Positions 6,186 to 63,053 of a stretch of DNA of 64,000 nt are shown one piece after another. The notes under the pieces were generated by a model. That model made no database searches. It was not told where the DNA came from and worked only from the letters and a program-made list of their open reading frames with translations. This DNA is from Dehalococcoidia bacterium. GTDB lineage: Bacteria > Chloroflexota > Dehalococcoidia > GIF9 > AB-539-J10. The stretch covers positions 10,272-74,271 of the forward strand of contig JAGGYM010000053.1 of the NCBI GenBank assembly GCA_021162545.1, given 5' to 3'. The position numbers were made by a program, and so were the translations under genes. Each line of letters starts with the position of its first letter. The first letter of the stretch is position 1.

Positions 6186-6215
6186 CAGGGCTGTAGATAT
6201 AAGCCGGCTGTGTAA

Positions 6216-8909: not shown

Positions 8910-8912
8910 AAC

Positions 8913-14680: not shown

Positions 14681-14682
14681 AG

Positions 14683-17444: not shown

Positions 17445-17473
17445 AGGCATAAGACAGAGAAGGAGGTTTACTA

Positions 17474-17695: not shown

Positions 17696-17756
17696 GGAAG
17701 CAGTAAATCTGATGTCAAATAACTTCCCCACCAAGGGAAGGAGCGGAGGTAACTGA

Positions 17757-19817: not shown

Positions 19818-19851
19818 GCTAAAATGACAGACATAAAAATGGAGGATGACA

Positions 19852-21585: not shown

Positions 21586-21702
21586 AATTGACTTCGCCCC
21601 AAGTGGTATACTGACCCTGTTCTGAGAAACAAAGTCAGAGAAACTAAAAGCCCAGGAGAGTGCTTGAAATAGAGGGCTCTCTTGGTTTGTGTAACTGATG
21701 TT

Positions 21703-23955: not shown

Positions 23956-23981
23956 GAGGAGCTGCACGTTACATTCGAGAT

Positions 23982-26759: not shown

Positions 26760-26769
26760 GGAGGATACG

Positions 26770-27750
26770 ATGTTTTCCAGCGAAGTAGTCATCAACGAAG
26801 AACGATGTCGTGGATGTGGATATTGTGTGCAATTTTGCCCTCGAGAATGTCTGGAACTGGACAGGGACAAGATCGGCCCCCTGGGATGTGCCCTGCCCGT
26901 TTTGACCAAAGCTGAGCAATGCAATACTTGTGGGGTTTGTGCCAGAATGTGTCCCCACTGGGCAATAGAGGTTTTCGCAACTCTAAAGATTCCGGAGGAA
27001 GCTCCCATCAGGGAAAAAATTGCAGGCTTACCAAAGTTGATGCCTTCTCCACCTCTGGCAAACTGTGCCGGATGTCAGCATCCAACGGTGGGCAGGCTCA
27101 TTGCCGGAGTTATAGCTGAACTGGGGCTCCGCGATAAGTTCGTCGCTCTCGATGGCATAAGCTGTGGAGGTTCATCAGTGTTAAGCATGGATTTCGGGCA
27201 GGTAGTGGGCATATATGACGACCCGATCGAGATGGCTCTGGCGGCCAAGCGCGCCCATCCCGATAAAGTCGTACTCGCTTTACTGAACAGCCCGAAGTTC
27301 GATATCATCGGCTACGATTCTTTGATGAGGGCGCTGACTTCGTCTGAAAAGATTACGATCATTAACTGTAATGACCCTCTCTATGGCCCGTGGCCGGCAA
27401 AGTGGCGCGTGGCCACTCCGGTGAGCTGCGTTCCTGATCCTGCTGCCGGGGAATTGACTGTAAGCAAATATCATGTACCGATGGCTGAAATGGCAGCAAC
27501 GTTCGACGGAGTTGCCTACAGCGCCCGTGGCGCTTTTACCTCGCTGGATGATTATGAGCACACAAAAAGCTATCTCAGAACTGCCATTCAAAAGCAGGTG
27601 CATAATGCCGGTTTTAGTTTTGTGGACGTTCTTTGCGCATGCATGGTTTTATCATATGAGAATCCCGTGGATTGTTTGCGGTGGATCAAAGAGGAGATGG
27701 TTGCTAAACTCCCTCTGGGCATATACAAGAACACCGATCGCGAGAGATAA
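26770..27750 (+). CDS. 2x[4Fe-4S] ferredoxin domain fused to a 2-oxoacid:ferredoxin-oxidoreductase beta-subunit-like (TPP-fold) domain; function unknown
   Basis: There is an RBS aggaggatacg before the ATG at 26770. The N-terminus reads CRGCGYCVQFCP…CNTCGVCARMCP. A CAGCQHP motif sits where OFOR beta subunits carry CPGCGH. No clear GDG TPP motif was seen. The track ORF starts at 26728. Confidence 0.5.
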   Translation: MFSSEVVINEERCRGCGYCVQFCPRECLELDRDKIGPLGCALPVLTKAEQCNTCGVCARMCPHWAIEVFATLKIPEEAPIREKIAGLPKLMPSPPLANCAGCQHPTVGRLIAGVIAELGLRDKFVALDGISCGGSSVLSMDFGQVVGIYDDPIEMALAAKRAHPDKVVLALLNSPKFDIIGYDSLMRALTSSEKITIINCNDPLYGPWPAKWRVATPVSCVPDPAAGELTVSKYHVPMAEMAATFDGVAYSARGAFTSLDDYEHTKSYLRTAIQKQVHNAGFSFVDVLCACMVLSYENPVDCLRWIKEEMVAKLPLGIYKNTDRER

Positions 27751-45350: not shown

Positions 45351-46607
45351 TTATTTAAGGGCGGGTACAGGGAAATGTCGGCACATTTCTTTCACTTCAT
45401 GGCGGATTCGCTCTCTCAGCTTCTCATCCTGAGGATTGGAAAGCACCTGCGAAATGAAGCTGGCTATCTCTATTACTTCACCTGTGCCAAACCCCCTGGT
45501 CGTTATTGCAGGAGTACCCAATCGGATACCGCTGGCGATGCGTGGTGGCTTGGGGTCAAAGGGAATAGTATTCCTGTTAGCCAGAATGCCAGATGCTTCC
45601 AGAGCTTCCTCTGCTTCTCTACCGCTTATCCCCAGGGGCGAAATGTCAACGAGAACCATGTGATTATCGGTACCACCTGAGACAATGCGCATCCCGTATT
45701 TCTGTAGTTCCAGAGCTAACACCCGGGCATTTTTCAATACTGAACGCTGATACTCGACGAACTCTGGCTGCATGGCATTGAAAAAACACACGGCTTTAGC
45801 GGCAATGACGTGCATTGCAGGCCCCCCCTGCATCCGGGGGAAAACTGCTGCATCTATAGCTGGAGCCAGCTCTTTCTTGCACAGAATAAAACCGCCCCGA
45901 GGTCCGCGCAACGTTTTTTGGGTGGTAGAAGTAACTACGTCGACATGCGGAACGGGAGAGGGATGGAGCCCCGCAGCCACCAATCCCGAAATGTGAGCAA
46001 TATCAGCCACCAGACCGGCATCCACTTTATCTGCGATGTCACGAAAGCGTTTGAAGTCGATGGTGCGGGGATAGGCACTGGCCCCTGCTACTATGAGCTT
46101 GGGCCTGTTTCGCAAAGCCAGTTCTTCGATTTCGTCGTAATCAAGCATCTCAGTCCTGGCATTAACTCCGTAGGGGATGAAGTTATACCATTTACCGGAG
46201 AAGTTAACCTTGGAACCGTGGGTGAGGTGTCCTCCGTGGCTGAGACTTAAGCCCATAACTGCATCGCCGAATCCCAGCAGAGCTGAATAAGTTGCCATAT
46301 TGGCCTGGCTCCCGCTATGAGGTTGAACATTGGCATGCTCTGCCTTAAAGAGCTCTTTAGCTCGCTCTATGGCCAGAGTTTCTACTGTATCTATATTGGC
46401 GCAGCCCCCATAATAACGGCGCCCCGGATATCCTTCAGCATATTTGTCGGTCATCAGGCAGCTTTGAGCTTCAATGATAGAGGGATGCACATGATTTTCC
46501 GAAGCTATGAGAGTTATGGTATTCTCCTGCCGCTCAGCTTCCTGTTCAAGGATACGAGCTACCTCGCTATCGTGCCTCTCCAGCAGGGAATCTTTATATA
46601 GTGTCAC
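45351..46607 (-). CDS. glyA: serine hydroxymethyltransferase
   Basis: 418 aa with [16 protein letters not shown] and the PLP-lysine region [16 protein letters not shown]. Confidence 0.93.
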
Positions 46608-46703: not shown

Positions 46704-46759
46704 AGATTCTGTTCTTTCTGTAGAACCTTAACAATTGAATAGTGGAAGGAAGGTTTTTA

Positions 46760-48276
<1,517 letters not shown>

Positions 48277-48358: not shown

Positions 48359-48566
48359 CTTCCACTATTCAGTTGTTAAAGACATTGGTTTGTGCGTTGA
48401 AGACTATTGCGAAATTTGTACAGCCCTTCTTGTAATTCATAGAATCTAAACACAGCCATAGCATTATTTTGACGGTCTTTTCGGCTATAAGGTATACTAC
48501 TTCCTTTCAGTGCCAAGAGGTATCTCTTGTGGCATAAAAATAAGGAAAGAAGAAGGAGATAGAATA

Positions 48567-49439
48567 ATGGAAATCATCGACGGCAGGAAAATAGCTGCTG
48601 AAATCCGCGAGGAGTTGAAACAGGAGATAAGCAAACTTAAGGAAAAGGGAGTAACCCCAGGGCTTGCAGCAATTCTAGTAGGGGAGAATGCTGCCTCTTT
48701 ATCTTACCTTCGGAGTATTGCCAGGGGATGTGAAAAGGTAGGCATGCTTATGGAGACGGTTAAGTTGCCTGAGGATATTACTCAAGAGCAGATTGAAAGT
48801 AAAATAGGTGAACTCAATCAAAACCCCAAATTCCATGGCATTATCCTCCAACTTCCTTTGCCTAAACATCTTGACACGCTTAAAGTAGAAAGCGCTATCT
48901 TGCCTGATAAAGATATTGATGGAACTAATCCAGTAAATACAGGAAAATTACTCTTGGGAGAAGAGACTTTCTTCCCCTCAACTCCTTATGGAGTTAAAGA
49001 ACTGTTGTTCCGCAGTGGCTATAGCCCTGAAGGGAAACATGTAGTTATCTGCGGTCGCAGCAATATTGTGGGTAAACCTCTGATGGGTATGCTCGTGCAA
49101 AAACAAAAAGGAGCTAATGCTACTGTAACTATCTGCCATACTGGGACCAAAGACTTTGCCTCAATTACAAGGCAAGCTGATATTCTGGTTGCCGCTATGG
49201 GGAGAGCCAAAACAATTACAGCAAATATGGTGAAGGGAGGGGCCATAGTAATTGACGTGGGGGTGAATCAAATAGAAGACCCAGCCACAGGGAAATTCAA
49301 GTTAACAGGAGATGTTGATTTTGAAGCGGTGAAAGACAAGGTAGGAGCAATAACACCCGTACCAGGAGGAACTGGCCCTGTGACTTCAGCAATGTTAATG
49401 ACTAATACTGTTAAATCTGCCAAGAGGTATAATAAATAA
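48567..49439 (+). CDS. folD: bifunctional methylenetetrahydrofolate dehydrogenase/methenyl-THF cyclohydrolase
   Basis: MEIIDGRKIAAEIREEL…PGLAAILVG…, the motif GIILQLPLPKHL and a Rossmann domain (VVICGRSNIVGKP). The track ORF starts 19 codons upstream, but the RBS supports 48567. Confidence 0.9.
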   Translation: MEIIDGRKIAAEIREELKQEISKLKEKGVTPGLAAILVGENAASLSYLRSIARGCEKVGMLMETVKLPEDITQEQIESKIGELNQNPKFHGIILQLPLPKHLDTLKVESAILPDKDIDGTNPVNTGKLLLGEETFFPSTPYGVKELLFRSGYSPEGKHVVICGRSNIVGKPLMGMLVQKQKGANATVTICHTGTKDFASITRQADILVAAMGRAKTITANMVKGGAIVIDVGVNQIEDPATGKFKLTGDVDFEAVKDKVGAITPVPGGTGPVTSAMLMTNTVKSAKRYNK

Positions 49440-50324
49440 ATGACCAAGATACTTGATGGGAAGAAGTTGTCAACTGAAATAAGAGATGAAATTAAACAGG
49501 ACATACTAAAACTCAAGGAAAAAGGAATAGTCCCTGGGCTTGCAGGTATCCTTGTCGGCCAAAATGAAGGTTCAGCTACTTATGTTCGACTTAAAGAAAA
49601 AGCGGCTGAAGCGTTAGGTATACTCACACAGGCAGTGAGATTATCCGAAGATGCATCAGAGGAGCAGTTACTCAAGCAGATTGATAAACTTAACCTGGAT
49701 AGTAAAATTCATGGTATCTTCATTCAACTTCCTCTTCCTAAACATATAAATGAAAATAGAGCTCTGAATGCCATCTTGCCCGAGAAGGATGTAGATGGAT
49801 TTCACCCTATGAATGTAGGCAAAGCCTGGTTGGGACAAGAAGCATTTCTTCCTGCAACACCAGATGGAATTCGTGAGATACTTACCCGATATGGCTACAG
49901 CAACTTGAAGGATAAACATGCAGTGATGGTAAGCGCGGATAATTTAGTAGGAAAACCCATGGCATCCATCCTCATTCAAGAAAATGTGGGAGTAAATGTG
50001 ACTCTTTGTCACCCTGCTACTCCAAACTTGTCCGATTATACCCGCCAAGCAGATATATTAGTTGTTTCAGTGAATAAGGCGAGGTTTATTACTGCAGATA
50101 TGGTTAAAGAAGGCGTGATAGCGATAGATTTTGGTGCTAACTACATAGAAAATCCTGCCGATAAGACGAAGAGGAAGTTAGTAGGCGATATAGACTTTGA
50201 AAAGGTCAAAGAAAAAGCCGAGGCAATTACACCCGTTCCTGGTGGAGTAGGCCCTATGACGATTACTATGCTCCTGTGCAGCACTGTCAAAGCAGCAAAG
50301 ATAATGTCACGTAGCCGATTATGA
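49440..50324 (+). CDS. folD: second FolD paralog (methylene-THF dehydrogenase/cyclohydrolase family)
   Basis: 294 aa. MTKILDGKKLSTEIRDEI…PGLAGILVG…IFIQLPLPKHI. About 50% identical to the upstream copy. It starts 1 nt after the upstream stop. Confidence 0.85.
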   Translation: MTKILDGKKLSTEIRDEIKQDILKLKEKGIVPGLAGILVGQNEGSATYVRLKEKAAEALGILTQAVRLSEDASEEQLLKQIDKLNLDSKIHGIFIQLPLPKHINENRALNAILPEKDVDGFHPMNVGKAWLGQEAFLPATPDGIREILTRYGYSNLKDKHAVMVSADNLVGKPMASILIQENVGVNVTLCHPATPNLSDYTRQADILVVSVNKARFITADMVKEGVIAIDFGANYIENPADKTKRKLVGDIDFEKVKEKAEAITPVPGGVGPMTITMLLCSTVKAAKIMSRSRL

Positions 50325-50346: not shown

Positions 50347-51033
50347 ATGGAAATACTAGATACTATCCCTATGCATCTGGATATTAACGAGGTGTCGAAA
50401 AAGCTGCACCTGGATAAAAAGAAGGGATATTCGAATACTGCTCAAGAATTGGTTGAGCTTGCTAATTCTCTGATCCACCCTAAGGCTATTTACGAAGTTT
50501 CATACGTTGATAATAAGAATGAGGACACGGTGGATATCGGTAGCGTGAAATTTACCAGCCGTGTACTCAGGGTTAATTTAGATAAAATAGGAAGAGTTTT
50601 CCCATATGTTGTGACAATTGGGAAGGAATTAGAGGACAGTACAGCTTCTTTTGATAATCTATTAAAGGCATATTGCCTGGATGAAATAGGAAATATGCTT
50701 ATTGAGATGGGCATGGAATATCTCAAAGGTTACTTGGAGAGGCGATACAAACTTGAACAGTTGTCAAATATAAGTCCAGGAAGTTTAAAGGATTGGCCAA
50801 TAACGCAACAAAAACAGCTGTTTTCAATTTTTGGTAATGTTGAAGGTTTAATTGGAGTTAAGTTAACCGACAGCTCACTTATGATTCCCAAGAAATCCGA
50901 ATCTGGGATATTTTTTCCTACCCAGGTCAAGTTTTATAGTTGCCAGCTATGCCCAAGAGAGAACTGTAAGGGAAGAGCAGCGCCATATGACGAGAACCTG
51001 GCGGAAAGTTATAGAAAAGAAGTGTCGGAATAA
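50347..51033 (+). CDS. standalone vitamin-B12-dependent methionine synthase activation-domain (AdoMet-binding reactivation) -like protein
   Basis: 228 aa. The C-terminal segment SLMIPKKSESGIFFPTQVKFYS parallels the MetH activation-domain motif (…[21 protein letters not shown]), recalled from memory. It ends with CQLCPRENC. Confidence 0.5.
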   Translation: MEILDTIPMHLDINEVSKKLHLDKKKGYSNTAQELVELANSLIHPKAIYEVSYVDNKNEDTVDIGSVKFTSRVLRVNLDKIGRVFPYVVTIGKELEDSTASFDNLLKAYCLDEIGNMLIEMGMEYLKGYLERRYKLEQLSNISPGSLKDWPITQQKQLFSIFGNVEGLIGVKLTDSSLMIPKKSESGIFFPTQVKFYSCQLCPRENCKGRAAPYDENLAESYRKEVSE

Positions 51034-51637: not shown

Positions 51638-52627
51638 ATGAAATCAAATTACCTTAGACTGAACAAATGGATAATTGGCCTGGCTATTTTAGTGTCCATC
51701 ATTTTTGTTGCGGCAGGTTGTGCTCCAGCTAACCACCAGCCGACCATCACCAGCATCAAAGCTGTGCCAGAGGCGGTTTACCCATCAGGCAGTTGCCAAA
51801 TTGAATGCGCTGCTTCAGATGATGACGATGATGAGCTAAGCTACGAGTGGTCAGCCAGTAAGGGGCATATAGATGGTGATGGGTCTATTGTTACCTGGAA
51901 CGCCCCAGAATCCGCAGGGATCTATAGCGTTACGGTTAAGGTAATTGATGGCAATGAAGGAGAAGTTTCTAACTCTATAGCTATTAGTGTGAGGGGCAAC
52001 CATCCACCAACTATTGTTAGCCTGACAGCAGATACGGATTGGATTGAACCGTCGAATAGTTGTCAACTTAAATGTGAAGTTAAAGACCTTGATGGTGACA
52101 AATTGAGCTATGAGTGGTCGGCTAATGGAGGTGTTATTTCCGGTGAAGGTTCGGTTGTCACATGGACTGCTCCTGAGACAACAGGTCTTTGTAATATCGC
52201 AATTGCAGTCGCTGATGGCCACGGCGAAGAAGATAAAGCCTTATTAGCTATTACTGTGGCGCTTAGCCCCCCACCGATTATCGAAGACCTGGTTGTCACC
52301 AGCGAACACCCCAAGTACGTGAAGAGAGGAGAAGAAAACACAGACAGGTACAAAATCTTGAAAAGCAAAAGTTGTGAAATTAAGTGTGTTGTTGTGAATG
52401 CCAGCTCCGAACTAATTTACGAATGGTCATGCGGCGGAGGCAAGATTTCTGGAGAAGGCTCTGTGGTTACCTGGATAGCGCCTCCTGACCGAGGCACAGT
52501 TACTATTACAGTAACAGTGTCTGATGCTGAAGGGGAGGTAGCCAGTAAGAACATAGTTTTTGAAGTGAACACCTGCGCATGCTCGCTTAAGAACTGGGGG
52601 CAGGCGGTAGATATCATCTCTAGTTAA
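51638..52627 (+). CDS. secreted lipoprotein with three tandem PKD-like domains
   Basis: A signal peptide with a lipobox (…FVAAGCAP). Then three ~95-aa repeats, each with P(T/P)I…SC…LSYEWSA..G.I.GEGS.VTW.AP…G…I.V.V.DG.GE, which is PKD-like (sYeWdfGDG…). Confidence 0.7.
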   Translation: MKSNYLRLNKWIIGLAILVSIIFVAAGCAPANHQPTITSIKAVPEAVYPSGSCQIECAASDDDDDELSYEWSASKGHIDGDGSIVTWNAPESAGIYSVTVKVIDGNEGEVSNSIAISVRGNHPPTIVSLTADTDWIEPSNSCQLKCEVKDLDGDKLSYEWSANGGVISGEGSVVTWTAPETTGLCNIAIAVADGHGEEDKALLAITVALSPPPIIEDLVVTSEHPKYVKRGEENTDRYKILKSKSCEIKCVVVNASSELIYEWSCGGGKISGEGSVVTWIAPPDRGTVTITVTVSDAEGEVASKNIVFEVNTCACSLKNWGQAVDIISS

Positions 52628-53345
52628 GCGGTACGAGTTTCACCTTGCCCCAAATTCCTATCTCGTCGCCTTTGATGATAACTATGCCATGCAAATTCTT
52701 TACTCCCTGTGCTTTCTCAATTGCTCCAGAAATATCTTCCCTGCTTTTGACCGAATTGCCTATAGCGGTAGCTATAGCGTCGGCCAAAGCCGTTGATGGC
52801 GAAAGAGCCACAATGGCATCGGCGTTGCCTAAATTCAGGGAATGCCCTATCGTTGCTGAAGAGGTACATATACCTAAAGGCGTTTCCTGAGGCTTGATTT
52901 CCAGGGCGATTTTCCCTGTAAAAGGAGACTGCCCGGCATAGATTCCCGCTAATCTTTTCTGTGATATTTTTAGGAAAATATCACCGCCATTTTCCACGAT
53001 TACCTCAGGCGAAAAGGGAAGTAAATCCCTGCCCACAGCTTCGGCAATAGCTCCAGCTACCGCTGCCATGGGGCCGACGCCAGCTAACTGTGATGCCCTG
53101 AGCATTTCTTTGACTATGGTCGGAGCACCTTCTTCCATTGGATACGGCCGCAATGTAGTTAGAAAGAGCGGATGGTATTCTATGTATTTTTCCAGTGATG
53201 AACGGTGCTTCAGTACAGACTTGAGAGCTTTGCCTTTGAGATCACGCTGTGCTCGAATGTATAAGTTGGTTTGCTTTACCACTACATTAAAGGAAACTAA
53301 GTCACTGTCTTTGATCCAGTGTCGATAAGTTTGTGCTTCACACAT
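52620..53345 (-). CDS. UPF0280/ApbE-like family protein (function unknown)
   Basis: 241 aa. The Gly/Ala-rich core GICTSSATIGHSLNLGNADAIVA resembles the UPF0280 family (from memory). It is co-directional and contiguous with the NIL-ferredoxin and COG1900 genes. Confidence 0.45.
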   Translation of the reverse strand: MCEAQTYRHWIKDSDLVSFNVVVKQTNLYIRAQRDLKGKALKSVLKHRSSLEKYIEYHPLFLTTLRPYPMEEGAPTIVKEMLRASQLAGVGPMAAVAGAIAEAVGRDLLPFSPEVIVENGGDIFLKISQKRLAGIYAGQSPFTGKIALEIKPQETPLGICTSSATIGHSLNLGNADAIVALSPSTALADAIATAIGNSVKSREDISGAIEKAQGVKNLHGIVIIKGDEIGIWGKVKLVPLN

Positions 53346-53756
53346 TTAGAAATACAATCGCATGGCTCGGGGGGGGCAAGCTTTAACACATAATCCACAG
53401 ATAACGCATTTATTGTGGTCAAAGAGCACTTTCCTGGTCTTTGCTTCTAGGGAAAAAGCGCCGCTGGGACAAATGGCAACGCATGCTCCACAGTGGGTAC
53501 ATCTGGCTTCATCGCGTACCACATCCTGTGAAAGAGATTGAATTTTTACGCCCACGCTGGCAAGATACTGGATGCCCTTGTCATAGTTTTTCTGGGTGCC
53601 ACCCAATTCCATAATTAGCAACCCTTCTTCACCTGGCGACACTGAAGCTTTAAGAATGTTAAAGTTGAGGTTGAAATCTTTGACCAAGCGGTAAACAACC
53701 GGTTGCCCTGTCACGTGTGGGGGAAAATGAAGCACTATCCTTTTAGAGATATCCAT
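53346..53756 (-). CDS. NIL-domain plus 2x[4Fe-4S] ferredoxin protein (methanogen MA1822-type partner of the homocysteine-biosynthesis sulfurtransferase)
   Basis: 136 aa with an N-terminal NIL-like domain and a C-terminal CTHCGACVAICP…CVICGLCVKACP. It lies immediately downstream of the COG1900 gene. Confidence 0.7.
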   Translation of the reverse strand: MDISKRIVLHFPPHVTGQPVVYRLVKDFNLNFNILKASVSPGEEGLLIMELGGTQKNYDKGIQYLASVGVKIQSLSQDVVRDEARCTHCGACVAICPSGAFSLEAKTRKVLFDHNKCVICGLCVKACPPRAMRLYF

Positions 53757-53760
53757 TTTA

Positions 53761-54969
53761 TTATTCAGTTATGAGCCTTTCCTCAAGAGGCTTAAAGGTT
53801 ATATCTGACTCTATCCCTGGCAAATGAGCTACAGGCTCAGTAAGTAGAAATTCACCTCTCTCTATCCAATCTTTTAATATGCCAGCAATCTCTATTGCTT
53901 TGGGGTAGCTAGATAATGAAGCTGTAGGTACGTCTTTCCCTTGAACCTTTATATGACCGCTTTTAAGTTCTGCGTAGCTAATCTCCCCCAAAATTCCTGG
54001 CTTCCTTTGCGGATAAGTCTCGGAGAATTCGATGATGGGAGCAAAGATTTCATCGTCGGTTACTGTGGTGTAGCGTAAAATTTCCTCGGAGAGTACAGGT
54101 ATTGGGATTCCTATACCTGTACTTAGCGTGCAACCGTAGCCAAACATGCTCGTTCCGACCAACCATTCTGGTTTCATCTGCTTCAAATCACCGATGAGCG
54201 ATAAAGAGCCTGCTCCCTCTCTAGGCACACCATTTTCTCCTCGGGGAACATTGGGGTTGTGTTGTGTGCCGTGCCAGGCAACATAGCCAATGCCCCCACC
54301 AATGAACACTTTTGTTCCCACACCTATGGATTTATAATAAGGGTCATTTAGCAAAGGGGAAAGTTGCCCTGAAGTGCTGTAATGTGCGTTGCCCAAATTT
54401 GGTTTTAACACTCCCATATAAGTGTAGAGCATCCTGTCTGATGAGTTAACAGCAACCTCATAGTTTTGGTAAGCATTTCTCACATTAAACAGGATAGCAT
54501 CATTGATATCCTTGAGGTTGATCCAACTTTCTAGTTTTCTCCTGGGATAACAATCTGTGCCATAAGCAGTAGCTACCAGTCTGATATCTTTACCTGCCAC
54601 CAGTTCTTCAATAACATGTCCGCCGCCATAATTAAACTCGCCGGGGTGAAATTTGTTTCTGGGGTCATCATCGGGCAGCGCGTTAGCTCCAAGAAAGACA
54701 TCTGCAGCAGCCAGTCCAGTGTACACCGGAACATCATTGAGATAAGCCTTGCCACCACCGAGCTTTATCCTGGGTTGAGAATGGCCAAAATTGAGGAATG
54801 CACCGGAGGAGCACATAGGACTAAAAGTGCCGGTAGTCACCACATCAATTTCCTCCGCTGCCTTATGCAGACCTTTTTCCCTGGCAATATCAATTACTTC
54901 CTCAGCAGTGACTACTACCGCCTTCCCTTTTTTTATTTTCTCGTTAATTTCAACGATTGTTTTTAACAT
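53761..54969 (-). CDS. COG1900/DUF39 family protein (L-aspartate-semialdehyde sulfurtransferase-type homocysteine biosynthesis enzyme, MA1821-like)
   Basis: 402 aa. The family was recognised from sequence memory (…GTFSPMCSSGAFLNFGH…). It has the canonical pairing with the NIL-ferredoxin gene. Confidence 0.7.
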   Translation of the reverse strand: MLKTIVEINEKIKKGKAVVVTAEEVIDIAREKGLHKAAEEIDVVTTGTFSPMCSSGAFLNFGHSQPRIKLGGGKAYLNDVPVYTGLAAADVFLGANALPDDDPRNKFHPGEFNYGGGHVIEELVAGKDIRLVATAYGTDCYPRRKLESWINLKDINDAILFNVRNAYQNYEVAVNSSDRMLYTYMGVLKPNLGNAHYSTSGQLSPLLNDPYYKSIGVGTKVFIGGGIGYVAWHGTQHNPNVPRGENGVPREGAGSLSLIGDLKQMKPEWLVGTSMFGYGCTLSTGIGIPIPVLSEEILRYTTVTDDEIFAPIIEFSETYPQRKPGILGEISYAELKSGHIKVQGKDVPTASLSSYPKAIEIAGILKDWIERGEFLLTEPVAHLPGIESDITFKPLEERLITE

Positions 54970-55020
54970 GGCTCTTTAGCAACCTACCTACTATTCTGGA
55001 CCATCCACATAAAGAATCCC

Positions 55021-55794
55021 TTATCTCAATAATTCCATAGCCAATTTGGCTGCCTTTCTGCCAGATAATAGCATGCCACCGAATACTGGGCCCATCCTGG
55101 GCGAACCGAAGACAGCGTTTGCTGCCATGCCGACGATTATCAATCCTGGGTAAATTTCCCTGGTGTTCTCGGCAATTTTACTTTCCGCTACTTCAACCCA
55201 CATTGGTTTTTCGCCGATTACATCCCCTGTTGCAGTCCTCAATTTTCCTCCCATCTTCCTGGTAACCATATGGCAAATTTCACAATCGTGTCCTGTGGCG
55301 TCTATTACTAATCTAGACCTTATAGCCAAAGGGTCAACATGTAAATTCGCTAAAAGAACAGGGCTCCAGTTTAATACTAATCCACTAACCTTATCAGCTT
55401 CCCTGATAACTATATCCTCAATACCGATCAGATTAAATACCTTTGCTCCAGCCCTTATGGTAAGAGAGCAAAGGGTTGAGGCCAGTTCTACAGCGCTAGC
55501 GACATAGTACCCCCCTTCGTAGGCAGTACTGGCAACGCCAAATTCATCCAGGATTTCCTTAGCCGCATCCTGTACTACAATCTTGTTGAACATCATGCCA
55601 CCTCCCCAGATACCACCCCCTGCGCTTAATTTTCTTTCAAATATGGAAGTCTTGATTCCTCCTTTTGCCAGATAATAAGCAGCAGTCATTCCTGCCGGGC
55701 CAGCACCCACAATAGCCACATCAAGCTCCATTGCCTCAAGCAGGTCTTTTATGTAGCTTTCTGTTATAGCCCGTGAAACAATAACTTCATCCAT
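55021..55794 (-). CDS. thi4: thiazole synthase Thi4 (archaeal-type, sulfide-dependent thiamine thiazole synthase / ribose-1,5-bisphosphate isomerase family)
   Basis: 257 aa. [18 protein letters not shown]…[12 protein letters not shown] are Thi4 motifs. Confidence 0.85.
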
Positions 55795-55948
55795 TCGAGG
55801 AGTACCTGAATTGAAATAGCTTAAATAGTATACACTTCCTGGAGGTTAAATTTCCAGTTACTGTGCTGGCCTGATTCTCTAAGCCCATTCTATCTCTAGT
55901 ATTTTGTTCTATTGTCTTTATCTTAAAACAAGTAGTTTTTTACCTGGG

Positions 55949-56872
55949 TCACTTCTTTTTTGAAACCTGCTCTGTCTTATAAGGGTTAACATGAACCATA
56001 ACATCCTGTATATGCTCAAGTGTGTCCATAAGCCTACTTCTTACTTCGACAGCTACTCCATGACCTTGCTCCACAGTGAGTTTGCTATTCACAGCTATCT
56101 CCACATCAATGGTGAATCTAGAACCACGACGATGCACCTTGAGGTCATCGATTGACTTAATTCCTCCAATCTCCAGGGCAGTAGTTCTAATCTGGTCCAA
56201 AATTGCTGAACTTGGCCTTTCATCCATCAGTACCCCAATATTCGGGCGAAGAAGAGTAAGGGAAACCCTGATTATAAAAGCGGAAACAATAAGGCCAGCT
56301 ACAGGGTCTAAATACTGATAACCTAATCTGGCTCCGAGTATACCGGCTAAAACAGCCACCGAGGAGTAAGCATCCGAACGGTGATCCCATGCAGTGGCAA
56401 TAACAGCAGGGCTATTATTCCTTTTCCCCACTTTGAGTGTATAACGAAACAGACCTTCTTTTACAACTATGGAGGCAATGGCTGCTACCAGAGCAATCGT
56501 AGCTGGAGTTTCAAAATGCTTGTGGACAATGAGGTGAACGGCGGAAATGCCAACAAAGACTCCGGTAGCAAGAATTATGAGGGCCACTATAAAAGCAGCG
56601 ATAGTCTCTGCATTGGCATGCCCGTAAGGATGGCTTTCATCTGCTGGTTTTTCTCCAATTCGTAGGCTTACATAAACAGTTCCTGTGGCCAGACAATCGG
56701 ATATAGAGTCAATGGCATCGGCTATCATAGCATAGCTGAAGCCAAGTATACCGGCGAGCATCTTGAAAATTGCTAGCACTATGTTGACGCCAAGCCCTAC
56801 TAAGGTGCAGGTTTTAGAATCATAAAAATTAACTCCTGACATAAATCCTCGTCTTCTATCTCCAGCTAACAA
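55949..56872 (-). CDS. cation diffusion facilitator family metal efflux transporter
   Basis: 307 aa, six TM segments, CDF signatures (…ADAIDSISD…HGHANAE…) and a C-terminal cytoplasmic domain. Confidence 0.85.
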   Translation of the reverse strand: MLAGDRRRGFMSGVNFYDSKTCTLVGLGVNIVLAIFKMLAGILGFSYAMIADAIDSISDCLATGTVYVSLRIGEKPADESHPYGHANAETIAAFIVALIILATGVFVGISAVHLIVHKHFETPATIALVAAIASIVVKEGLFRYTLKVGKRNNSPAVIATAWDHRSDAYSSVAVLAGILGARLGYQYLDPVAGLIVSAFIIRVSLTLLRPNIGVLMDERPSSAILDQIRTTALEIGGIKSIDDLKVHRRGSRFTIDVEIAVNSKLTVEQGHGVAVEVRSRLMDTLEHIQDVMVHVNPYKTEQVSKKK

Positions 56873-56874
56873 GC

Positions 56875-57045
56875 CTAGATTGCCTGGGCAAAAGTTTGTC
56901 TATTGAGCGGGTGGAGCTTATGCGCCTCCCACTGTTCCTTGGGGAGGACACAGATGTTGCCTTTCTCTTCTATTTTCACTTTCTCATCCGTTATCTTGAT
57001 TACCGGAGAGCAGAGCCCTTCTCCGCACAGGCTTACGATTTTCAT
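56875..57045 (-). CDS. small Cys-rich hypothetical protein (56 aa: MKIVSLCGEGLCSPVIKITDEKVKIEEKGNICVLPKEQWEAHKLHPLNRQTFAQAI)
   Basis: It is not in the ORF track because it is under 60 aa. It has a strong RBS (AAGGAGG) 8 nt upstream of the ATG. Its stop is 2 nt from the CDF start, placing it in an operon between the permease and the CDF gene. It contains C7, C12, C33 and a H..H pair. Confidence 0.35.
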   Translation of the reverse strand: MKIVSLCGEGLCSPVIKITDEKVKIEEKGNICVLPKEQWEAHKLHPLNRQTFAQAI

Positions 57046-57115: not shown

Positions 57116-58134
57116 CTATATTAACGAGAAGGAATACCCTAAAACCAGGGACATTATGCTAATGCATGCCAGATAAATAAGCAAGATTTTGCCACTGAAT
57201 TCCTTTTTCAGAACAAGGATAGTTCCCCAACTGGTAATCGGGCCTACCAATAGCAGAACCAGTCCGGCGCCGATATTCATTCCTTGCGACAGAAAGGCCT
57301 TAACCAGAGGAGGACTGGCTGTGGAGCAGACATACATCAAAAGTCCAAGAACAAGGCTGAATAAATACCCCAATCCACCGCTGAAATAGGTGCCAACAAA
57401 TTTCCCTACAGGGGTAACTGTCACTACCAGAGCTGCCAGAGCAAGTCCTAGAAGAATCTCAGGGCCAATTTCCTTCACCATATCCGCAAAACCATATCTG
57501 AAAGCTGAATTCACTCTGTCCTTAATCCTAATGCTCCGGGTGCATTGCTCTGCAGTAGCATATTCTTCGGCTTCCCTCTCAAAAATCGCTTGGCAATGAG
57601 GAGAACAAAAATAATAACTTTTGCCCCCATATTCTGTTTTTAATCCCTTCGCTGTATCCACATTCATTCCACAAACAGGGTCTATAGCAAGTTCTGCCCT
57701 TTGAAGAGGACTCGCCAAGTCCTTGGGCTCAGATTGAATGAGGTTGCCAACAATACCCATGATTGACCCCATCAAGATCGCGGCAAATAATATAAATACG
57801 GTGAACTTTATACCCAGCAGGGCATAACAAACCAGAAGAGCGCTTATCGAGGTGGCTGGTGTCGCTACCAAGAAAGCTAAAACTGGACCTAGCCTTGCCC
57901 CTTTCTGGTGTAGACCTACCGCTACTGGGAGAGACCCTATACAGCAAAGGGGAAGAACTGTCCCTGCAAGGGTGGACTAGAGGAGAGGCTTTATTCCTCG
58001 CCCACCAAGGTGTCTTTCCACCAATCCTCCAGGAACAAACTCATGGATCAAGCCGCTCAGGAGCAAGCCTATTGCAAGGAAGGGCAATACCTCGATTAAA
58101 TAATCCCTAAACGCGATAAAAAACTGGGCTATCA
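57116..58134 (-). pseudogene. ArsP-like COG0701 permease with an embedded TRASH/YHS metal-binding domain; the N-terminal ~90 codons are disrupted by two compensating frameshifts (pseudogene, or homopolymer-type assembly error). The intact C-terminal ORF is 57116..57871
   Basis: The conserved N-terminus (…DYLIEVLP | LLAIGLLLSGLIHEFVPGGLVERHLGGRGIKPLL | SSPPLQGTVLPLCCIGSLPVAVGL…) is encoded in three successive frame segments. The gene frame has stops TAG at ~58069-58071 and TAA at ~57992-57994. The middle 32 codons lie in the -1 frame. The TRASH motif is DPVCGMNVDTAKGLKTEYGGKSYYFCSPHCQAIFE. A TTG start overlaps the acr3 stop (TTGA). Confidence 0.5.
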
Positions 58135-59235
58135 ACCACTTGCTCCTTCGCCGTCACCATCGGCGTATTGAATTCGTGGCTGGTAGAAGAAACCTCTTGT
58201 CTTCTTACAGAGCCATACCAGAAAGAGCATGAAGGGGACCTCTGTCAGAACGCCAACAACTGTAGCCAGCACTGCTCCTGAAGAGAGGCCAAATACGGTC
58301 GTTGCTACAGCAACGGCTACCTCAAAGTGATTGCTTCCAGCGATTATTGCTGTTGGTGCCGCATCCTCATAGGAGAGATGAATAGGTTTAGAGATGAGGT
58401 AAGTGAGGGCAAAGACAAAAAGGATATTCAGGAATATCCCGATGGCAATCATGCCCACGGATGCCGGAAGTTCTGTGATTATGTCCCCCTGCAGACTGAA
58501 TAGGATCAGTAGAGTGATGAGGAGAGTGATTATCGACACGGTCCGCAGGGGAGGAATAAGTTTTGTTTTAAACCATCCTATTCCCCTCCGCTTAATCGTC
58601 TGAGTTCTGGTGAAGTAGCCACATAAGAGAGGAAGGCCAATATAGACTGCCACCGAAGAAACGATCGCTTTCCAAGGTATAGCAATTCCCGAAATTCCCA
58701 AGAGAAACTGGACCAGCGGGGCATAGAAGAGCACCATTGAGAGCGAGTTTATGGCAGTCATTACTAGCGTGTGCGCCATATTTCCTTTTGCCAGATAACT
58801 CCACATCAAAACCATAGCAGTGCATGGAGCAACGCCAAGAAGAATCATTCCAGCCCGGTATTCCTGAGCAATCTCGGGTGATAAGAAGCTCTTGAAAACT
58901 ACATCCATGAACAGCCAGGCGAAGAAAGTCATAGTAAAGGGTTTTATCGCCCAGTTGGCAACAAGAGTGGTGATTATTGGCTTTGGGGCCCTGGCCGCTT
59001 TTTTCACCTGACTGAAATCTATCTGCACCATTATGGGATAGATCATCATGAACAAACAAATAGCAATTGGGATGGAGACATTGGCAACAGTTAGCCCACC
59101 TAATACGTCGGAGATTTTGGGAAAAACCTTCCCTATCCCTATCCCGGCACCAATACAAAGTGCTACCCACAGGCTCAGGTATTTCTCCCAAACTCCAAGT
59201 CTGCTTTCCCTTTCTTGGGCCATATCGCGTCGCAT
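58132..59235 (-). CDS. acr3: arsenite efflux transporter, ACR3 family
   Basis: 367 aa, 10 TM segments, the ACR3 signature (…GVAPCTAMVLMWSYLAKG…). It lies 4 nt downstream of arsM. Confidence 0.9.
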   Translation of the reverse strand: MRRDMAQERESRLGVWEKYLSLWVALCIGAGIGIGKVFPKISDVLGGLTVANVSIPIAICLFMMIYPIMVQIDFSQVKKAARAPKPIITTLVANWAIKPFTMTFFAWLFMDVVFKSFLSPEIAQEYRAGMILLGVAPCTAMVLMWSYLAKGNMAHTLVMTAINSLSMVLFYAPLVQFLLGISGIAIPWKAIVSSVAVYIGLPLLCGYFTRTQTIKRRGIGWFKTKLIPPLRTVSIITLLITLLILFSLQGDIITELPASVGMIAIGIFLNILFVFALTYLISKPIHLSYEDAAPTAIIAGSNHFEVAVAVATTVFGLSSGAVLATVVGVLTEVPFMLFLVWLCKKTRGFFYQPRIQYADGDGEGASG

Positions 59236-59239
59236 TTTC

Positions 59240-60000
59240 TCACTTGTACGCCTTAACTGTAATGTTCAAAAGCTTTTCTATAGCTCCGTTTCCCTTACTC
59301 TCTATATAGAATTCTCTACTGGACACCATCATCACATCCTCGAACCTGGCCTTTCTTACCTCGCCCAAGTATTCTTGCTGCTCTAAAGCCCCGGCGATAC
59401 ATCCTGTCCAGGCATCAAGATCATTCTTTATCTCATCGGGGGAGTTCTCTCTGGGAAACTATATCGGAAACTATGAGCCTTCCACCGGGCTTCAGAACCC
59501 GGTAAGCCTCCCGGAAGGCTTTAGATTTATCTGGTGATAGATTGATAACGCAGTTACTGCTAACGACGCCCACAGATTCATCCTCGATGGGAAGTTTCTC
59601 AATTTCCGCCAGGCGAAACTCTACATTTTGGTAGCCATAACTCCTAGCGATACCTTTTGCCTTGTCCCCCATTTCCTCTGTCATATCAACTCCGATAACC
59701 CTGCCGGTGGGGCCAACCTTATTAGCTGCCAAGAATACATCTACGCCTGCCCCTGACCTTAAATCCAGGACTACCTCGCCCTGTTTTATGTCTGCTGTAG
59801 CGGTGGGATTACCACATCCCAAGCCTATAACCGCCTCTTCTGGAATTTGTTCCAAATCTTCTCTCAAGTATCCGATAGCCTGAGCTTGGGGCAGAAGGTT
59901 GGCTCCGCAAGCACAACTTGGGCAACAGTTTTGTTGGTCTTGCTTAGCTATCTGAGCGTATCTCCTCTTCACCACTTCCCTGATTTTCTTCTCTTCCATA
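59240..60000 (-). pseudogene. arsM: arsenite S-adenosylmethionine methyltransferase ArsM with an apparent +1 frameshift at a C5 homopolymer (coding-strand CCCCC = plus-strand GGGGG at 59438-59442). The N-terminal 189-codon ORF (59433..60000) is intact and the conserved C-terminal tail continues in the +1 frame to 59240
   Basis: The N-terminus has CCPSCAC and a SAM-MTase domain (VLDLRSGAGVDV…VVSSNCVINLSPDKSKAF…LKPGGRLIVSDIV). After …RELP, the frame with DEIKNDLDAWTGCIAGALEQQEYL… (conserved GC(I/V)AGA Cys) is open. Removing one C restores ELPDEIK. Confidence 0.6.
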
Positions 60001-60106
60001 ATTGACCTCCTTGCATTTGCGCCGCAACAGCACTCGTTAACTAAAGCAGCGCACACAATATCCTGCGGGCTGTAAAAAAACCAGTAAGTAAATTGCCATC
60101 TAAATT

Positions 60107-60379
60107 TCAGCCACCACTGACGATAAACTGAATAGTGAGTTCATCATTCTTCTTCACAGGGCTATCCAATTTCAGTGTATATGAATTCGTCGATTTAATA
60201 AAAATCTGGTAAAGGCCTCTCAACTCCTTTTGCCTGACACTAATTTCTTTCTTAATGCCAGGAAATCGCGCCTCCAAATTGTCAAGGCACTGACCAACAT
60301 TTCGGCCTTCTGTCTCAACCAATCCACGGCCATCGGTCAAGTATTTCAGATGCCAGGCAATTTTTACCTTGATACTCAT
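60107..60379 (-). CDS. MoaD/ThiS-family sulfur-carrier protein (C-terminal Gly-Gly)
   Basis: 90 aa ending …IQFIVSGG with a beta-grasp-like pattern. It is adjacent to a MoeB/ThiF-family gene and to AOR. Confidence 0.65.
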   Translation of the reverse strand: MSIKVKIAWHLKYLTDGRGLVETEGRNVGQCLDNLEARFPGIKKEISVRQKELRGLYQIFIKSTNSYTLKLDSPVKKNDELTIQFIVSGG

Positions 60380-62211
60380 TATGACTCATATGATTCAGGT
60401 GAAAATCGTTTTCCCCTTCGTCTAGCCATTTTTTTCTGTGGGGCCAACTCCTCTATCCCGAGTTCCCGAATCTTCTCCAGTTTTGGAATTCCCGTTTTCC
60501 TACTCCAGTCTCGAAGCTCGTAATATTCGTCCAGCATTTTCTCAAAATCCTCCAGCGGGACCATCCAGCCCGTATCCTCCAGGGGCTCAGTAAATCTCTT
60601 GGGCAATGTGTCATCCTTTCTAGAGAGCCCTTCACGAACGTTAAATAGTCGGGTTACATTATAGGCTCTCTCACCCAGAGCCATGAACCATTTTTCATCG
60701 GCATCCCATCCAAGGGAAGTAAGCGCCTCTGTCAACCACTCTGCCGAATATGGTGCACAATCGCATGTTATAAGGCTCCACGCAGCAGCGTTGTAATCCT
60801 GCAATCGCTTCACCAATGCGGCTTTCCCCACAGTGGTGAACGGGTCTAGCGTTTTGCCAAAAACTTCCGCACCAGTTGGATACGCCCTCTGATGACAAGC
60901 GCCTCTATCAGCTGTGGCATAAGCAAGGGCCATCCCTCTCGACCCTCTGGGATCATATCCAGCAACTTCAAGTCCCTTGACATGAACAGCAAAATCCCCT
61001 GTTCTCTTCATAAGTTTGGCCGAAGCCGCTCTTACACCTTCGGCCAGAAGATCCCCTATCCCCTCCCTGGTAGTTATCATTTTCACTAACTCTACCTGTT
61101 TTTTCGAATCTCCAAAAGGAATCTTATAATTTATCAGGCCTTTCTCTGAGCATTCCATAGCAAAGGCAATGACATCTCCCAAGGACATCACGTCAATACC
61201 ATATTCATTAGCCAACCTTATGGATTCTAATACTGTGCTCAAATCGCCCTGCCCACAGTTTGCTCCAAGCAGCACCATAGGCTCATATGATACTGTAGCT
61301 TCAGCGCCTGCAAAAGGACCTTCATTCGCCCTCACTATATTGCCACAGCCAATGGGGCACAAATGACAGCTAGACTTTTGTATAACATTTGGCCGCAATG
61401 CAGCTTCATTAATATTTTTAACCTGCTCAAATGAACCCGCAGTAAAGTTCCGGGTCGGTACAATGTGCGCTTCGTTACACATATCAATATTGGGAGTGAA
61501 CATGCCCCCACTGAAAAACTCTCTGAGGTCCTTATTATCAGCAAGGCGTCTAAAGTGTTTCTTCTGGAGTTCCTTTGTTTTCTCAGGAATATCGATTTTC
61601 CCGTTGCTCTTAATGGCAATGGCCTTCAGATTCTTTGACCCCATTACAGCGCCAATGCCACAACGCCCTATCGCTCCAGGGCGCCCACTCCCGGTCACAT
61701 TGTTCAATACACATGCAAATTTGACCAGATTTTCCCCGCCAGGACCAATCGTTGCCACACTAAAACCTGGATAATATTCGCTTGTCTCCGTAGTACTCTT
61801 CCCTTTAAGAGTGGAACTAACGTCTTCCAGCATTACATTGTGCCCCTCTACCTTCAGAACAACCAAATTTGGACTTTTCCCTTCAATAATAATTCCCAAA
61901 TACCCTGCCTTCCTTAGTTCATACGAAAAATTGCCGCCGGAAAAAGAATCAGCGTATGCTCCTGTCAAGGGTGACTTCGTCACCACCGCATAACGCGTGC
62001 AACTGGGCATGATACCTGTTAAGGGGCCAGCTATAAACATGAGTTTATTATCAGGCCCCAATGGGTCAGTCTTAGCCCTTAACTCTTTATAGAGATAATA
62101 AGCGCCTAACCCCTTTCCACCGACATACTTATGCATTAACTCAGGTGATATTAGCTCCTCCTTCACCACCCCCTCTGACAGGTTAACCCTTAATAACTTG
62201 TACTTTTCCAT
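60379..62211 (-). CDS. aor: tungsten-containing aldehyde:ferredoxin oxidoreductase (AOR family)
   Basis: About 610 aa from MEKYKLLRVNLSEG… The AOR N-terminal domain and Cys ligands for a [4Fe-4S] cluster are present (…CHLCPIGCG…). Confidence 0.85.
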   Translation of the reverse strand: MEKYKLLRVNLSEGVVKEELISPELMHKYVGGKGLGAYYLYKELRAKTDPLGPDNKLMFIAGPLTGIMPSCTRYAVVTKSPLTGAYADSFSGGNFSYELRKAGYLGIIIEGKSPNLVVLKVEGHNVMLEDVSSTLKGKSTTETSEYYPGFSVATIGPGGENLVKFACVLNNVTGSGRPGAIGRCGIGAVMGSKNLKAIAIKSNGKIDIPEKTKELQKKHFRRLADNKDLREFFSGGMFTPNIDMCNEAHIVPTRNFTAGSFEQVKNINEAALRPNVIQKSSCHLCPIGCGNIVRANEGPFAGAEATVSYEPMVLLGANCGQGDLSTVLESIRLANEYGIDVMSLGDVIAFAMECSEKGLINYKIPFGDSKKQVELVKMITTREGIGDLLAEGVRAASAKLMKRTGDFAVHVKGLEVAGYDPRGSRGMALAYATADRGACHQRAYPTGAEVFGKTLDPFTTVGKAALVKRLQDYNAAAWSLITCDCAPYSAEWLTEALTSLGWDADEKWFMALGERAYNVTRLFNVREGLSRKDDTLPKRFTEPLEDTGWMVPLEDFEKMLDEYYELRDWSRKTGIPKLEKIRELGIEELAPQKKMARRRGKRFSPESYES

Positions 62212-62258
62212 TGCATTTCGCCTCCTGTAATTAGCTAAATTTGGCCTCCACACACTCA

Positions 62259-63053
62259 TCAAGACTCACTGCCTCCACAAACCCTGCATTCAGGATTCTT
62301 GGCTAAATTGGCTATGGTGAACTCCATCCCTTCACCATCAATATATAACATCCTGTTGGTGAGCAAATTACCAAAACCGGTAAGAAGTTTAACTACTTCC
62401 ATAACCTGTAGAGTAGCTATCAACGCCGGAGCCATACCGAAAACCGGAATTACCCCCTTGTTTTTCGGAGCTTCAGGGAAAATACAGGCAAAGCAGGCGG
62501 TTTCCCCAGGAATTATGGTGGTAACTTCACCAATGAGCCCATTCACTCCTCCATGGATGAAAGGGATTCTTTCTGCCACGCATGCTGAGTTAAGAATAAA
62601 TCTGGTTTCGAAATTATCCATCCCGTCTATTACCACATCTGCTCTCATAATAATGCCCCGCACATTTCCCTGGGTAATTCTCTCAAGAAGCGGACTAATC
62701 TTTATCGACGGATTCAATTTGGCCAGTTTCCTTGCTGCCGAGAACGGTTTCTCCTCTCCGATATCCTCATCCCAATAAAGAATTTGTCGGTTTAAATTAG
62801 AGAGCTCCACGCGGTCACAATCCACCAGAGTAATATGTCCCATGCCAGCACAGGCTAAATATATAGAAGCGCTGGTTCCCAATCCCCCAAGTCCAGCTAC
62901 CACTACATGGGAGCGCTTAAGCTTCTCTTGCCCCTGCCACCCAAAACTTGGGTATAATATTTGCCGCCTGTATCTGCTGAGATCACTATTTGTAAGCACA
63001 TTTCCCTTCGCTCTTTTCATTAAATTCTTACTTTGCCTCCTTTGAACTATCAA
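62259..63053 (-). CDS. MoeB/ThiF/HesA-family E1-like adenylyltransferase (start possibly at the internal Met near 63020)
   Basis: RYRRQIL…VVVAGLGGLGTSASIYLACAGMG…LVDCDRVELSNLNRQ and a C-terminal CxxC…CRVCGG zinc motif. Confidence 0.8.
   Translation of the reverse strand: MIVQRRQSKNLMKRAKGNVLTNSDLSRYRRQILYPSFGWQGQEKLKRSHVVVAGLGGLGTSASIYLACAGMGHITLVDCDRVELSNLNRQILYWDEDIGEEKPFSAARKLAKLNPSIKISPLLERITQGNVRGIIMRADVVIDGMDNFETRFILNSACVAERIPFIHGGVNGLIGEVTTIIPGETACFACIFPEAPKNKGVIPVFGMAPALIATLQVMEVVKLLTGFGNLLTNRMLYIDGEGMEFTIANLAKNPECRVCGGSES

Follow-up and report, generated by a model that had tools for sequence, protein, structure and literature searches.

A four-gene cluster of a Dehalococcoidia bacterium that probably joins a sulfide-dependent thiazole synthase to the DUF39 route to homocysteine

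A 64-kb stretch of a Dehalococcoidia genome (contig JAGGYM010000053.1, referred to here over its full 64,000 nucleotides as the window) contains four co-directional minus-strand genes spanning 52620–55794, which encode a Thi4 thiazole synthase, a COG1900 (DUF39) protein, a NIL-domain ferredoxin and a UPF0280 protein (Table 1). This unit of an uncultured anaerobic member of the Dehalococcoidales very probably joins two independent sulfide-consuming enzymes, one for the thiamin thiazole and one for homocysteine, with UPF0280 serving as an accessory of the homocysteine enzyme; the activities, co-transcription and regulation are deduced from published work and homology. Of the four genes, three make up an already published system, described for this bacterial class as well, and no new pathway is claimed.

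The open reading frames (ORFs) have exactly the coordinates given in an earlier reading made from the letters of the window (the sequence-only reading), and profile searches confirmed its assignment of all four families. From thi4 onwards the genes are separated by 51, 4 and 0 nt, with the start codon of the UPF0280 gene abutting the stop codon of the NIL-ferredoxin gene. As the family matches are strong and full-length, the four ORFs are not chance occurrences. The same proteins are deposited in GenBank as MCD6568112–MCD6568115 from a Dehalococcoidia metagenome-assembled genome (MAG), where they were named by PGAP as UPF0280 family protein, 4Fe-4S binding protein, homocysteine biosynthesis protein and thiazole biosynthesis protein. 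The closest species-level genomes are Dehalococcoidales MAGs (81–82% identity in UPF0280), and the strictly anaerobic, Dehalococcoidia-like host suggested by the sequence-only reading fits both the GenBank entry and these relatives. A scan for UPF0280 using one genome per species returned 322 relatives; the window proteins were then run by tblastn against the best 80 loci (55–82% identity, almost all from Dehalococcoidales).

The COG1900 protein matches a single Pfam family, HcyBio (PF01837, 496.3 bits), over residues 17–376, covering profile positions 1–349 of 349. Two cysteines stand in conserved motifs, Cys53 ('PMCSSG') in 62/62 homologues and Cys140 ('GTDCYP') in 61 of the 62. COG1900a proteins of the L-ASST (L-aspartate semialdehyde sulfurtransferase) type carry two 'nearly universally conserved' cysteines, Cys54 (essential) and Cys131 in MA1821 (PMC12068725), to which Cys53 and Cys140 appear to correspond, an equivalence that is based on the motifs and not on an alignment to MA1821. 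In a library-wide search with the window protein (1010 clusters at 50% identity, used for subfamily placement alone), both motifs were present in the nearest 50%-cluster representatives, one of them 504 aa long, and missing in distant paralogues. No solved homologue was found by sequence search. The protein is thus predicted to be the catalytic subunit of L-ASST, belonging to the COG1900a subfamily.

In the adjoining protein, residues 5–72 match the NIL domain (PF09383, 58.4 bits) and residues 79–131 match Fer4 families, with two CxxCxxCxxxCP motifs whose eight cysteines are invariant in 75/75 homologues. The 411-nt length of the ORF is constant in nearly all of the 75 homologous loci, which favours the start giving 136 aa; some public gene sets start the gene late (88 or 106 aa, in loci L002, L003 and L005; loci of other genomes are designated by L numbers), and such starts lose the NIL domain. 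The identification of the two proteins as a pair of the MA1821/MA1822 type, made in the sequence-only reading, is borne out by the PF01837 match, the cysteine motifs and the NIL and Fer4 domains.

The pathway to which these families belong has been described genetically. Kuehl et al. 2014 (PMC4045070) reported that DUF39 is required for homocysteine synthesis in D. alaskensis, and that its orthologues, including Dehalococcoides DET0921, are 'often adjacent to COG2122' and a ferredoxin. Price et al. 2018 (PMC5764234) found that D. vulgaris Miyazaki mutants in the DUF39, NIL/ferredoxin or COG2122 genes are methionine auxotrophs, that the fitness profiles of COG2122 (DvMF_0044) and DUF39 correlate with r = 0.98 over 170 fitness experiments, and that the route does not run through homoserine as an intermediate; Dehalococcoides DET0921:DET0919 is named there as a user of the pathway. 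For Methanosarcina, the same paper describes MA1821/MA1822, a conserved MA1821 cysteine that carries a persulfide, and MA1715, which is a COG2122 protein needed at low sulfide. The 2025 MMP16 paper (PMC12068725) states that MA1821/MA1822 form L-ASST and that the NIL domain binds methionine, and describes MA1715 as a sulfur-trafficking protein for L-ASST. A pathway of the methanogen type, as the sequence-only reading called it, is not surprising in a bacterium, since it had already been demonstrated genetically in Desulfovibrio (PMC5764234, PMC4045070).

The window contains the same three families as the systems of M. acetivorans (MA1821–MA1822 and MA1715), D. vulgaris Miyazaki (DvMF_1464, DvMF_0262 and DvMF_0044) and Dehalococcoides (DET0921:DET0919), in the Dehalococcoides order DUF39, NIL-ferredoxin, COG2122, and with both COG1900a cysteines and all eight ferredoxin cysteines retained. 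CBS domains are missing from its COG1900a protein, as from Dde_3007, whereas MA1821/MJ0100 have them. The three homocysteine genes are contiguous in the window, whereas they are dispersed in D. vulgaris, and in contrast to the known DUF39 systems the operon is headed by thi4. By analogy, the COG1900a protein would transfer sulfur to L-aspartate semialdehyde to give homocysteine; in the published proposal, the conserved Cys53 forms a persulfide and the reaction proceeds by way of a thioaldehyde. The NIL-ferredoxin would provide two low-potential electrons through its two [4Fe-4S] clusters, its NIL domain probably mediating feedback by methionine, and COG2122/UPF0280 would act as an accessory for the efficient use of sulfide by the homocysteine enzyme.

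The UPF0280 protein had been taken in the sequence-only reading for an uncharacterised addition to these genes, but it is COG2122, the published third component of the DUF39 pathway (PMC5764234, PMC4045070). It matches NF003323 (PRK04334) at 306 bits (cutoff 271). In a local Pfam search no family was assigned to it at E ≤ 0.01, ApbE (PF02424) included; in precomputed annotations its homologues are placed in PF27030 'AbpE_bact', with the source name 'UPF0280 family protein [Dehalococcoidia bacterium]'. Its solved homologue is PDB 2o34 (E 8e-43), the function of which is not known, and a search of all PDB sequences with the UPF0280 profile returned 2o34 only, with no ApbE chain even at E ≤ 10. 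An AlphaFold2 model built from an 18-sequence alignment (pLDDT 54) was too poor for use.

Thi4 matches PF01946 at 287.4 bits and TIGR00292, 'sulfide-dependent adenosine diphosphate thiazole synthase', at 322.9 bits (cutoff 148.3), and among PDB entries it is closest to 7rk0, the non-Cys THI4 of Thermovibrio (E 6e-84). In the PDB alignments, the position of the sacrificial Cys, preceding V-D-P, is occupied by His ('ANLHVDPL'), and the metal-ligand residues Asp (VDP) and His (GHD) are kept ('LHVDP...DATGHD'). Methanogen THI4s carry 'GLH[IV]DP' at the same site. The window Thi4 thus resembles the non-Cys THI4s of Methanocaldococcus jannaschii, Methanotorris igneus and Thermovibrio ammonificans (PDB 4Y4M, 4Y4N, 6HK1 and 7RK0) in its full-length homology, its Asp/His ligands and a His in place of the sacrificial Cys, a position held by Met158 in the Thermovibrio enzyme (ligands Asp160 and His175) and by His in 171 of 199 non-Cys THI4s (PMC8454699). 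The suicide, Cys-dependent type was considered and rejected, as the active-site Cys of the C-x-D-P motif is not present and His stands in its place; Cys-type relatives with 'ITCVDP' (~40% identity) occur at other loci (L011, L033 and L073). The His at the Cys position points to a catalytic, sulfide-dependent enzyme, in agreement with the sequence-only reading, and the window Thi4 is accordingly classified from its active-site residues as a putative non-Cys, non-suicide, sulfide-dependent ADP-thiazole (ADT) synthase, which would make ADP-thiazole catalytically. A literature search on thiamin or thiazole biosynthesis in Dehalococcoides gave nothing relevant.

Unlike the solved non-Cys THI4s, the window Thi4 has clade-specific cysteines as well as operon-linked homocysteine genes. 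Cys109 ('STLCS') and Cys174 ('GHDxExC') are present in all 28 cluster-linked His-type Thi4s (loci L006–L085 and L132–L153), where the solved enzymes have Ala and Val, and the closest relatives of the window add Cys171, which creates a CEIC motif directly after the metal-ligand His.

Examination of the gene order around UPF0280 revealed DUF39 and the NIL-ferredoxin directly upstream and on the same strand in 59 of the 63 loci with enough sequence; the NIL-ferredoxin adjoins UPF0280 in 73/76 loci. In half of the informative loci (25/50), DUF39 is immediately preceded by Thi4, at a median gap near 14 bp (typically 7–30 bp), and the genes flanking the four-gene block vary between loci. A ThiF-family gene directly follows UPF0280 in seven Thi4-less Dehalococcoidales loci (L036, L039, L048–L051 and L060), and is itself followed by a ThiS-family gene in L050, the one locus examined for this.

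Sulfide consumers, namely CysK, non-Cys Thi4 and the homocysteine enzyme, recurrently share operons, in several gene orders and several lineages. When metagenomes were scanned with an alignment of non-Cys Thi4s headed by the Thermovibrio sequence, 80 loci were obtained, 8 of which belong to the window clade and have DUF39 after Thi4 wherever the contig permits. Among the 72 remaining loci (667 kb of flanking sequence), DUF39 was found in the flanks of five, compared to ~0.3 expected for one copy per ~2.5 Mb. Two of these have the order CysM-CysRS fusion/DUF39/NIL-ferredoxin/Thi4 (L092 and L096) and one the order DUF39/NIL-ferredoxin/YcaO-TPR/Thi4 (L097), and in the other two (L105 and L115) DUF39 lies 3–8 kb from Thi4. 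UPF0280 is absent from the flanks of all five (tblastn, even at E ≤ 1e-3). In L096, the fusion of CysM with cysteinyl-tRNA synthetase (4508–6853, 781 aa) lies directly upstream of DUF39/NIL-ferredoxin/Thi4; in L097, the YcaO-TPR protein (8280–10001), which separates the NIL-ferredoxin from a Tyr-type Thi4, is a relative of the YcaO of McrA-glycine thioamidation.

A CysK-type cysteine synthase (TIGR01139, above cutoff) adjoins Thi4 or DUF39 in 15 loci, including one from a deltaproteobacterium, and in many of them stands directly upstream of one or the other (for example L153 2685–3632, L041 1712–2707 and L011 6735–7718; further loci are L143, L073, L084, L105, L115, L064 and L066), as in the order HisRS-CysK-Thi4-DUF39-NIL-ferredoxin-UPF0280. 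In L066 CysK adjoins a UPF0280 gene without DUF39. No CysK is present in the window. A sulfur island of a D. mccartyi MAG (L011, 1076–10735) contains genes for a NifS-like desulfurase, an Rrf2 regulator, ThiF, ThiS, a 112-aa ORF, a JAB peptidase, a Cys-type Thi4 ('ITCVDP'), DUF6775, CysK, DUF39, NIL-ferredoxin, an aspartyl-protease-like 139-aa ORF and UPF0280. A study of suicide Thi4s (ACS Omega 2026, PMC13325395) lists ThiS, ThiF, CysK, NifS, DUF6775 and HcyBio as their recurrent neighbours. The L011 island is exactly a sulfur-relay neighbourhood of the kind described there, and the window is similar in having Thi4 beside sulfur-handling genes including HcyBio; it differs in that its Thi4 is of the His type and that DUF6775, CysK and NifS are not adjacent. 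The clustering of sulfide users is mildly new, and has in part been reported for suicide Thi4s in PMC13325395.

The sequence upstream of thi4 is consistent with transcription of the four genes as one unit. A consensus scan detected a promoter-like element, TGGAAA-18 nt-TATACT, which is the probable operon promoter; the same scan detected no terminator-like site in the gene gaps and no promoter in the 51-nt thi4–DUF39 gap. A 'GTATA[CA]T' box resembling a –10 element occurs within 150 nt upstream of thi4 in 20/35 related loci, while DUF39 genes without an adjacent Thi4 are preceded, close to their start, by a promoter-like site of their own of the TTGACA/TAATAT type, a distribution that fits thi4 as the first gene of a single transcript. 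No riboswitch or leader RNA was found in Rfam at gathering thresholds across the whole window or at E ≤ 1 in 52400–57000, and no TPP or SAM element was found near the cluster. The position of thi4 at the head of the operon would most likely reflect the co-expression of sulfide-dependent biosyntheses, not a shared protein partner.

Two points weigh against the interpretation preferred here. The first is that the adjacency of Thi4 may go back to one ancestral event and have been passed on vertically, which would make it weak evidence for functional coupling: in a neighbour-joining tree of DUF39, the loci with an adjacent Thi4 fall into what is essentially one superclade, within the Dehalococcoidales, with a few losses, so that the arrangement probably has one origin, or a few, and has been retained since. 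The second concerns Cys160 ('GICTSS'), the sole widely conserved cysteine of UPF0280, for which 7/81 homologues (L030–L034, L046 and L047) have Gly, Ala or Ser. All seven of these loci adjoin an intact NIL-ferredoxin gene, and DUF39 was detected in five of them. As Cys160 is not invariant, a simple persulfide-carrier role of this residue is doubtful, and an obligatory one was rejected.

Taken to its conclusion, the first point would mean that Thi4 stands beside the homocysteine genes as a neutral, lineage-specific gene order without functional or regulatory meaning. One ancestral rearrangement would account for the superclade; DUF39 is nearby in only 5/72 Thi4 loci outside the clade, and the wider synteny (methyltransferase, YHS-permease and ThiF) is partly common within it. 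However, the four-gene block has been kept while its flanks have changed, with short gaps, and the five DUF39 genes found outside the clade exceed the expected number and include at least two further adjacent gene orders. The Cys-type Thi4 with DUF39 in the D. mccartyi island, and the place of HcyBio among the recurrent Thi4 neighbours in PMC13325395, also argue against neutrality, which we regard as rather unlikely.

A functional explanation of the grouping, favoured by the sequence-only reading, is that UPF0280/COG2122 is a sulfide- or persulfide-delivery factor shared by Thi4 and the homocysteine enzyme. Such a factor would suit the tight four-gene block seen in 25 species-level genomes, as well as the presence of Cys109 and Cys174 in every cluster-linked Thi4 and their absence from the solved non-Cys THI4s. 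M. acetivorans MA1715 mutants are moreover rescued by either cysteine or homocysteine, which may indicate more than one sulfur acceptor (PMC5764234, PMC12068725). Yet UPF0280 stays with DUF39 and the NIL-ferredoxin in the Thi4-less half of the loci, and is missing from the five independent Thi4–DUF39 clusters; it therefore tracks the homocysteine enzyme and not Thi4. Thi4 lies at the end of the operon most distant from UPF0280, and Cys160 is variable. E. coli is not known to encode a COG2122 protein. Non-Cys THI4s work in E. coli cells, where they complement thiG mutants unaided (PMC8454699). A shared delivery factor thus seems improbable, and of the earlier proposal, the grouping of sulfide-consuming enzymes stands, as a pattern that recurs across loci, and the shared UPF0280 accessory does not. 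Similarly doubtful is a protein-bound sulfur route common to both syntheses, in which the His-type Thi4 of this clade would draw on COG2122 and/or the COG1900a persulfide and not on free sulfide. If true, together with CysK in the sister lineages, it would turn the cluster into an operon devoted to 'sulfide assimilation' whose enzymes have one delivery system in common.

It is very unlikely that the COG1900 protein is a different aldehyde sulfurtransferase, such as a coenzyme M (CoM) synthase resembling MMP16, or a maker of some other thiol. COG1900 does comprise several paralogous subfamilies, and in M. acetivorans L-ASST may have a second role in the synthesis of CoM (PMC12068725). The model for MMP16/COG1900d, TIGR03287, gives a partial match of 119.8 bits, far under its cutoff of 363.95; Pfam finds inside the protein no ferredoxin domain (Fer4), such as is inserted in members of the MMP16/COG1900d subfamily; both COG1900a cysteine motifs that distant paralogues lack are present; and the partners are a separate NIL-ferredoxin and COG2122, as in the genetically proven systems. 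That UPF0280 is an ApbE-like flavin transferase modifying a partner such as Thi4 or the ferredoxin subunit, an accessory role also raised in the sequence-only reading, is scarcely credible: COG2122 is classed in the ApbE superfamily, which for UPF0280 is a label in source names alone, the flavin transferase was a speculation of 2014 (PMC4045070), and Thi4 does have a dinucleotide-binding fold, but the Pfam and PDB profile searches gave no ApbE match, the homology of COG2122 to ApbE stops short of the flavin-binding region, which is not conserved (PMC5764234), and Thi4 uses NAD as a substrate and not a covalent flavin (PMC8454699).

Table 1. Positions of the four-gene cluster, its predicted promoter and other features of the window
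Feature	Position	Strand	Description
thi4	55021–55794	–	257 aa; first gene of the unit
COG1900a/DUF39/HcyBio	53761–54969	–	402 aa; MA1821 / Dde_3007 / DET0921 type
NIL domain + 2x[4Fe-4S] ferredoxin	53346–53756	–	136 aa; MA1822 / DvMF_0262 type
UPF0280/COG2122	52620–53345	–	241 aa; MA1715 / DvMF_0044 / DET0919 type
Promoter-like element	55827–55856	–	TGGAAA-18 nt-TATACT; consensus scan, upstream of thi4
PKD/Ig-repeat protein	51638–52627	+	convergent to UPF0280
Metal/metalloid gene set	55949–56872, 57116–57871, 58132–59235, 59433–60056	–	immediately upstream of thi4
ThiS/MoaD-like protein	60107–60379	–	90 aa; Gly-Gly C-terminus
Tungsten-type aldehyde:ferredoxin oxidoreductase	60379–62262	–	between the ThiF and ThiS-like genes
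ThiF-family E1-like enzyme	62259–63053	–	C-terminal CxxC
Weak MetH-activation-domain protein	50347–51033	+	228 aa
One-carbon genes	45351–46607 (–), 48510–50324 (+)		SHMT, two tandem FolD paralogues
16S rRNA gene	46759–48274	+	complete, bacterial; 1484 bits
Double-AAA+ protein	4782–6185	+	467 aa; DnaA-type and IstB/DnaC-type modules
DnaB	2937–4313		
Redox and CoA-enzyme-activase genes	27–2198, 13748–27750	+	

Downstream of the cluster, the gene for a PKD/Ig-repeat protein overlaps the 3' end of UPF0280 by 8 bp. Its product begins with a hydrophobic segment and then a Cys, which may be a lipoprotein signal, and a convergent homologue comes after UPF0280 in many related loci. The metal/metalloid set next to thi4 encodes a CDF cation-efflux transporter, a YHS/TRASH-domain protein with an ArsP-type permease, an SBF/ACR3-like transporter and an ArsM-like SAM methyltransferase; about 6 related loci with Thi4 also have the YHS-permease within 10 kb. 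Non-Cys THI4 neighbourhoods are likewise reported to include TRASH and metal-handling genes (PMC8454699), represented in the window by the TRASH/YHS-domain metal protein and the CDF transporter. The ThiF and ThiS-like genes lie 5–8 kb from the window Thi4. One-carbon genes are found close to the cluster on its other side. The 228-aa protein weakly resembles the MetH reactivation domain, with a score below threshold (PF02965, 23.4 bits; cutoff 25); it was considered as a conserved neighbour of the cluster and rejected, as it is not kept beside it in other genomes.

The window is otherwise ordinary chromosomal DNA, with genes for DnaB, PolA, SecA, ValRS, DnaK, SHMT, two FolD and a lone 16S rRNA. 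Since 23S and 5S rRNA genes are absent across the 64 kb, the rRNA genes are unlinked, as is known for Dehalococcoidia. The 467-aa protein encoded just downstream of DnaB may, from its two AAA+ modules, be a helicase loader. The redox and CoA-enzyme-activase regions encode a CoA-enzyme-activase domain protein, xanthine-dehydrogenase-family Mo subunits, hydantoinase/oxoprolinase A and B, a molybdopterin oxidoreductase and large Fe-S flavoproteins, a gene content that fits an anaerobic lifestyle. Among the window ORFs scanned there is no reductive dehalogenase, no metA/metB/metY or other gene of the alternative homocysteine routes (metA/X, metB, metY/Z), and no thiC/D/E, a result that applies to the window only.

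The locus most likely provides a direct-sulfide route to methionine and to the thiamin thiazole in uncultured Dehalococcoidales, which is useful for metabolic reconstruction, as automated tools often label such organisms auxotrophs. The value added by the present analysis is comparative: COG2122 tracks the homocysteine enzyme, and sulfide users regroup in operons. This recurrent grouping could guide experiments on the regulation or channelling of sulfide in strict anaerobes.

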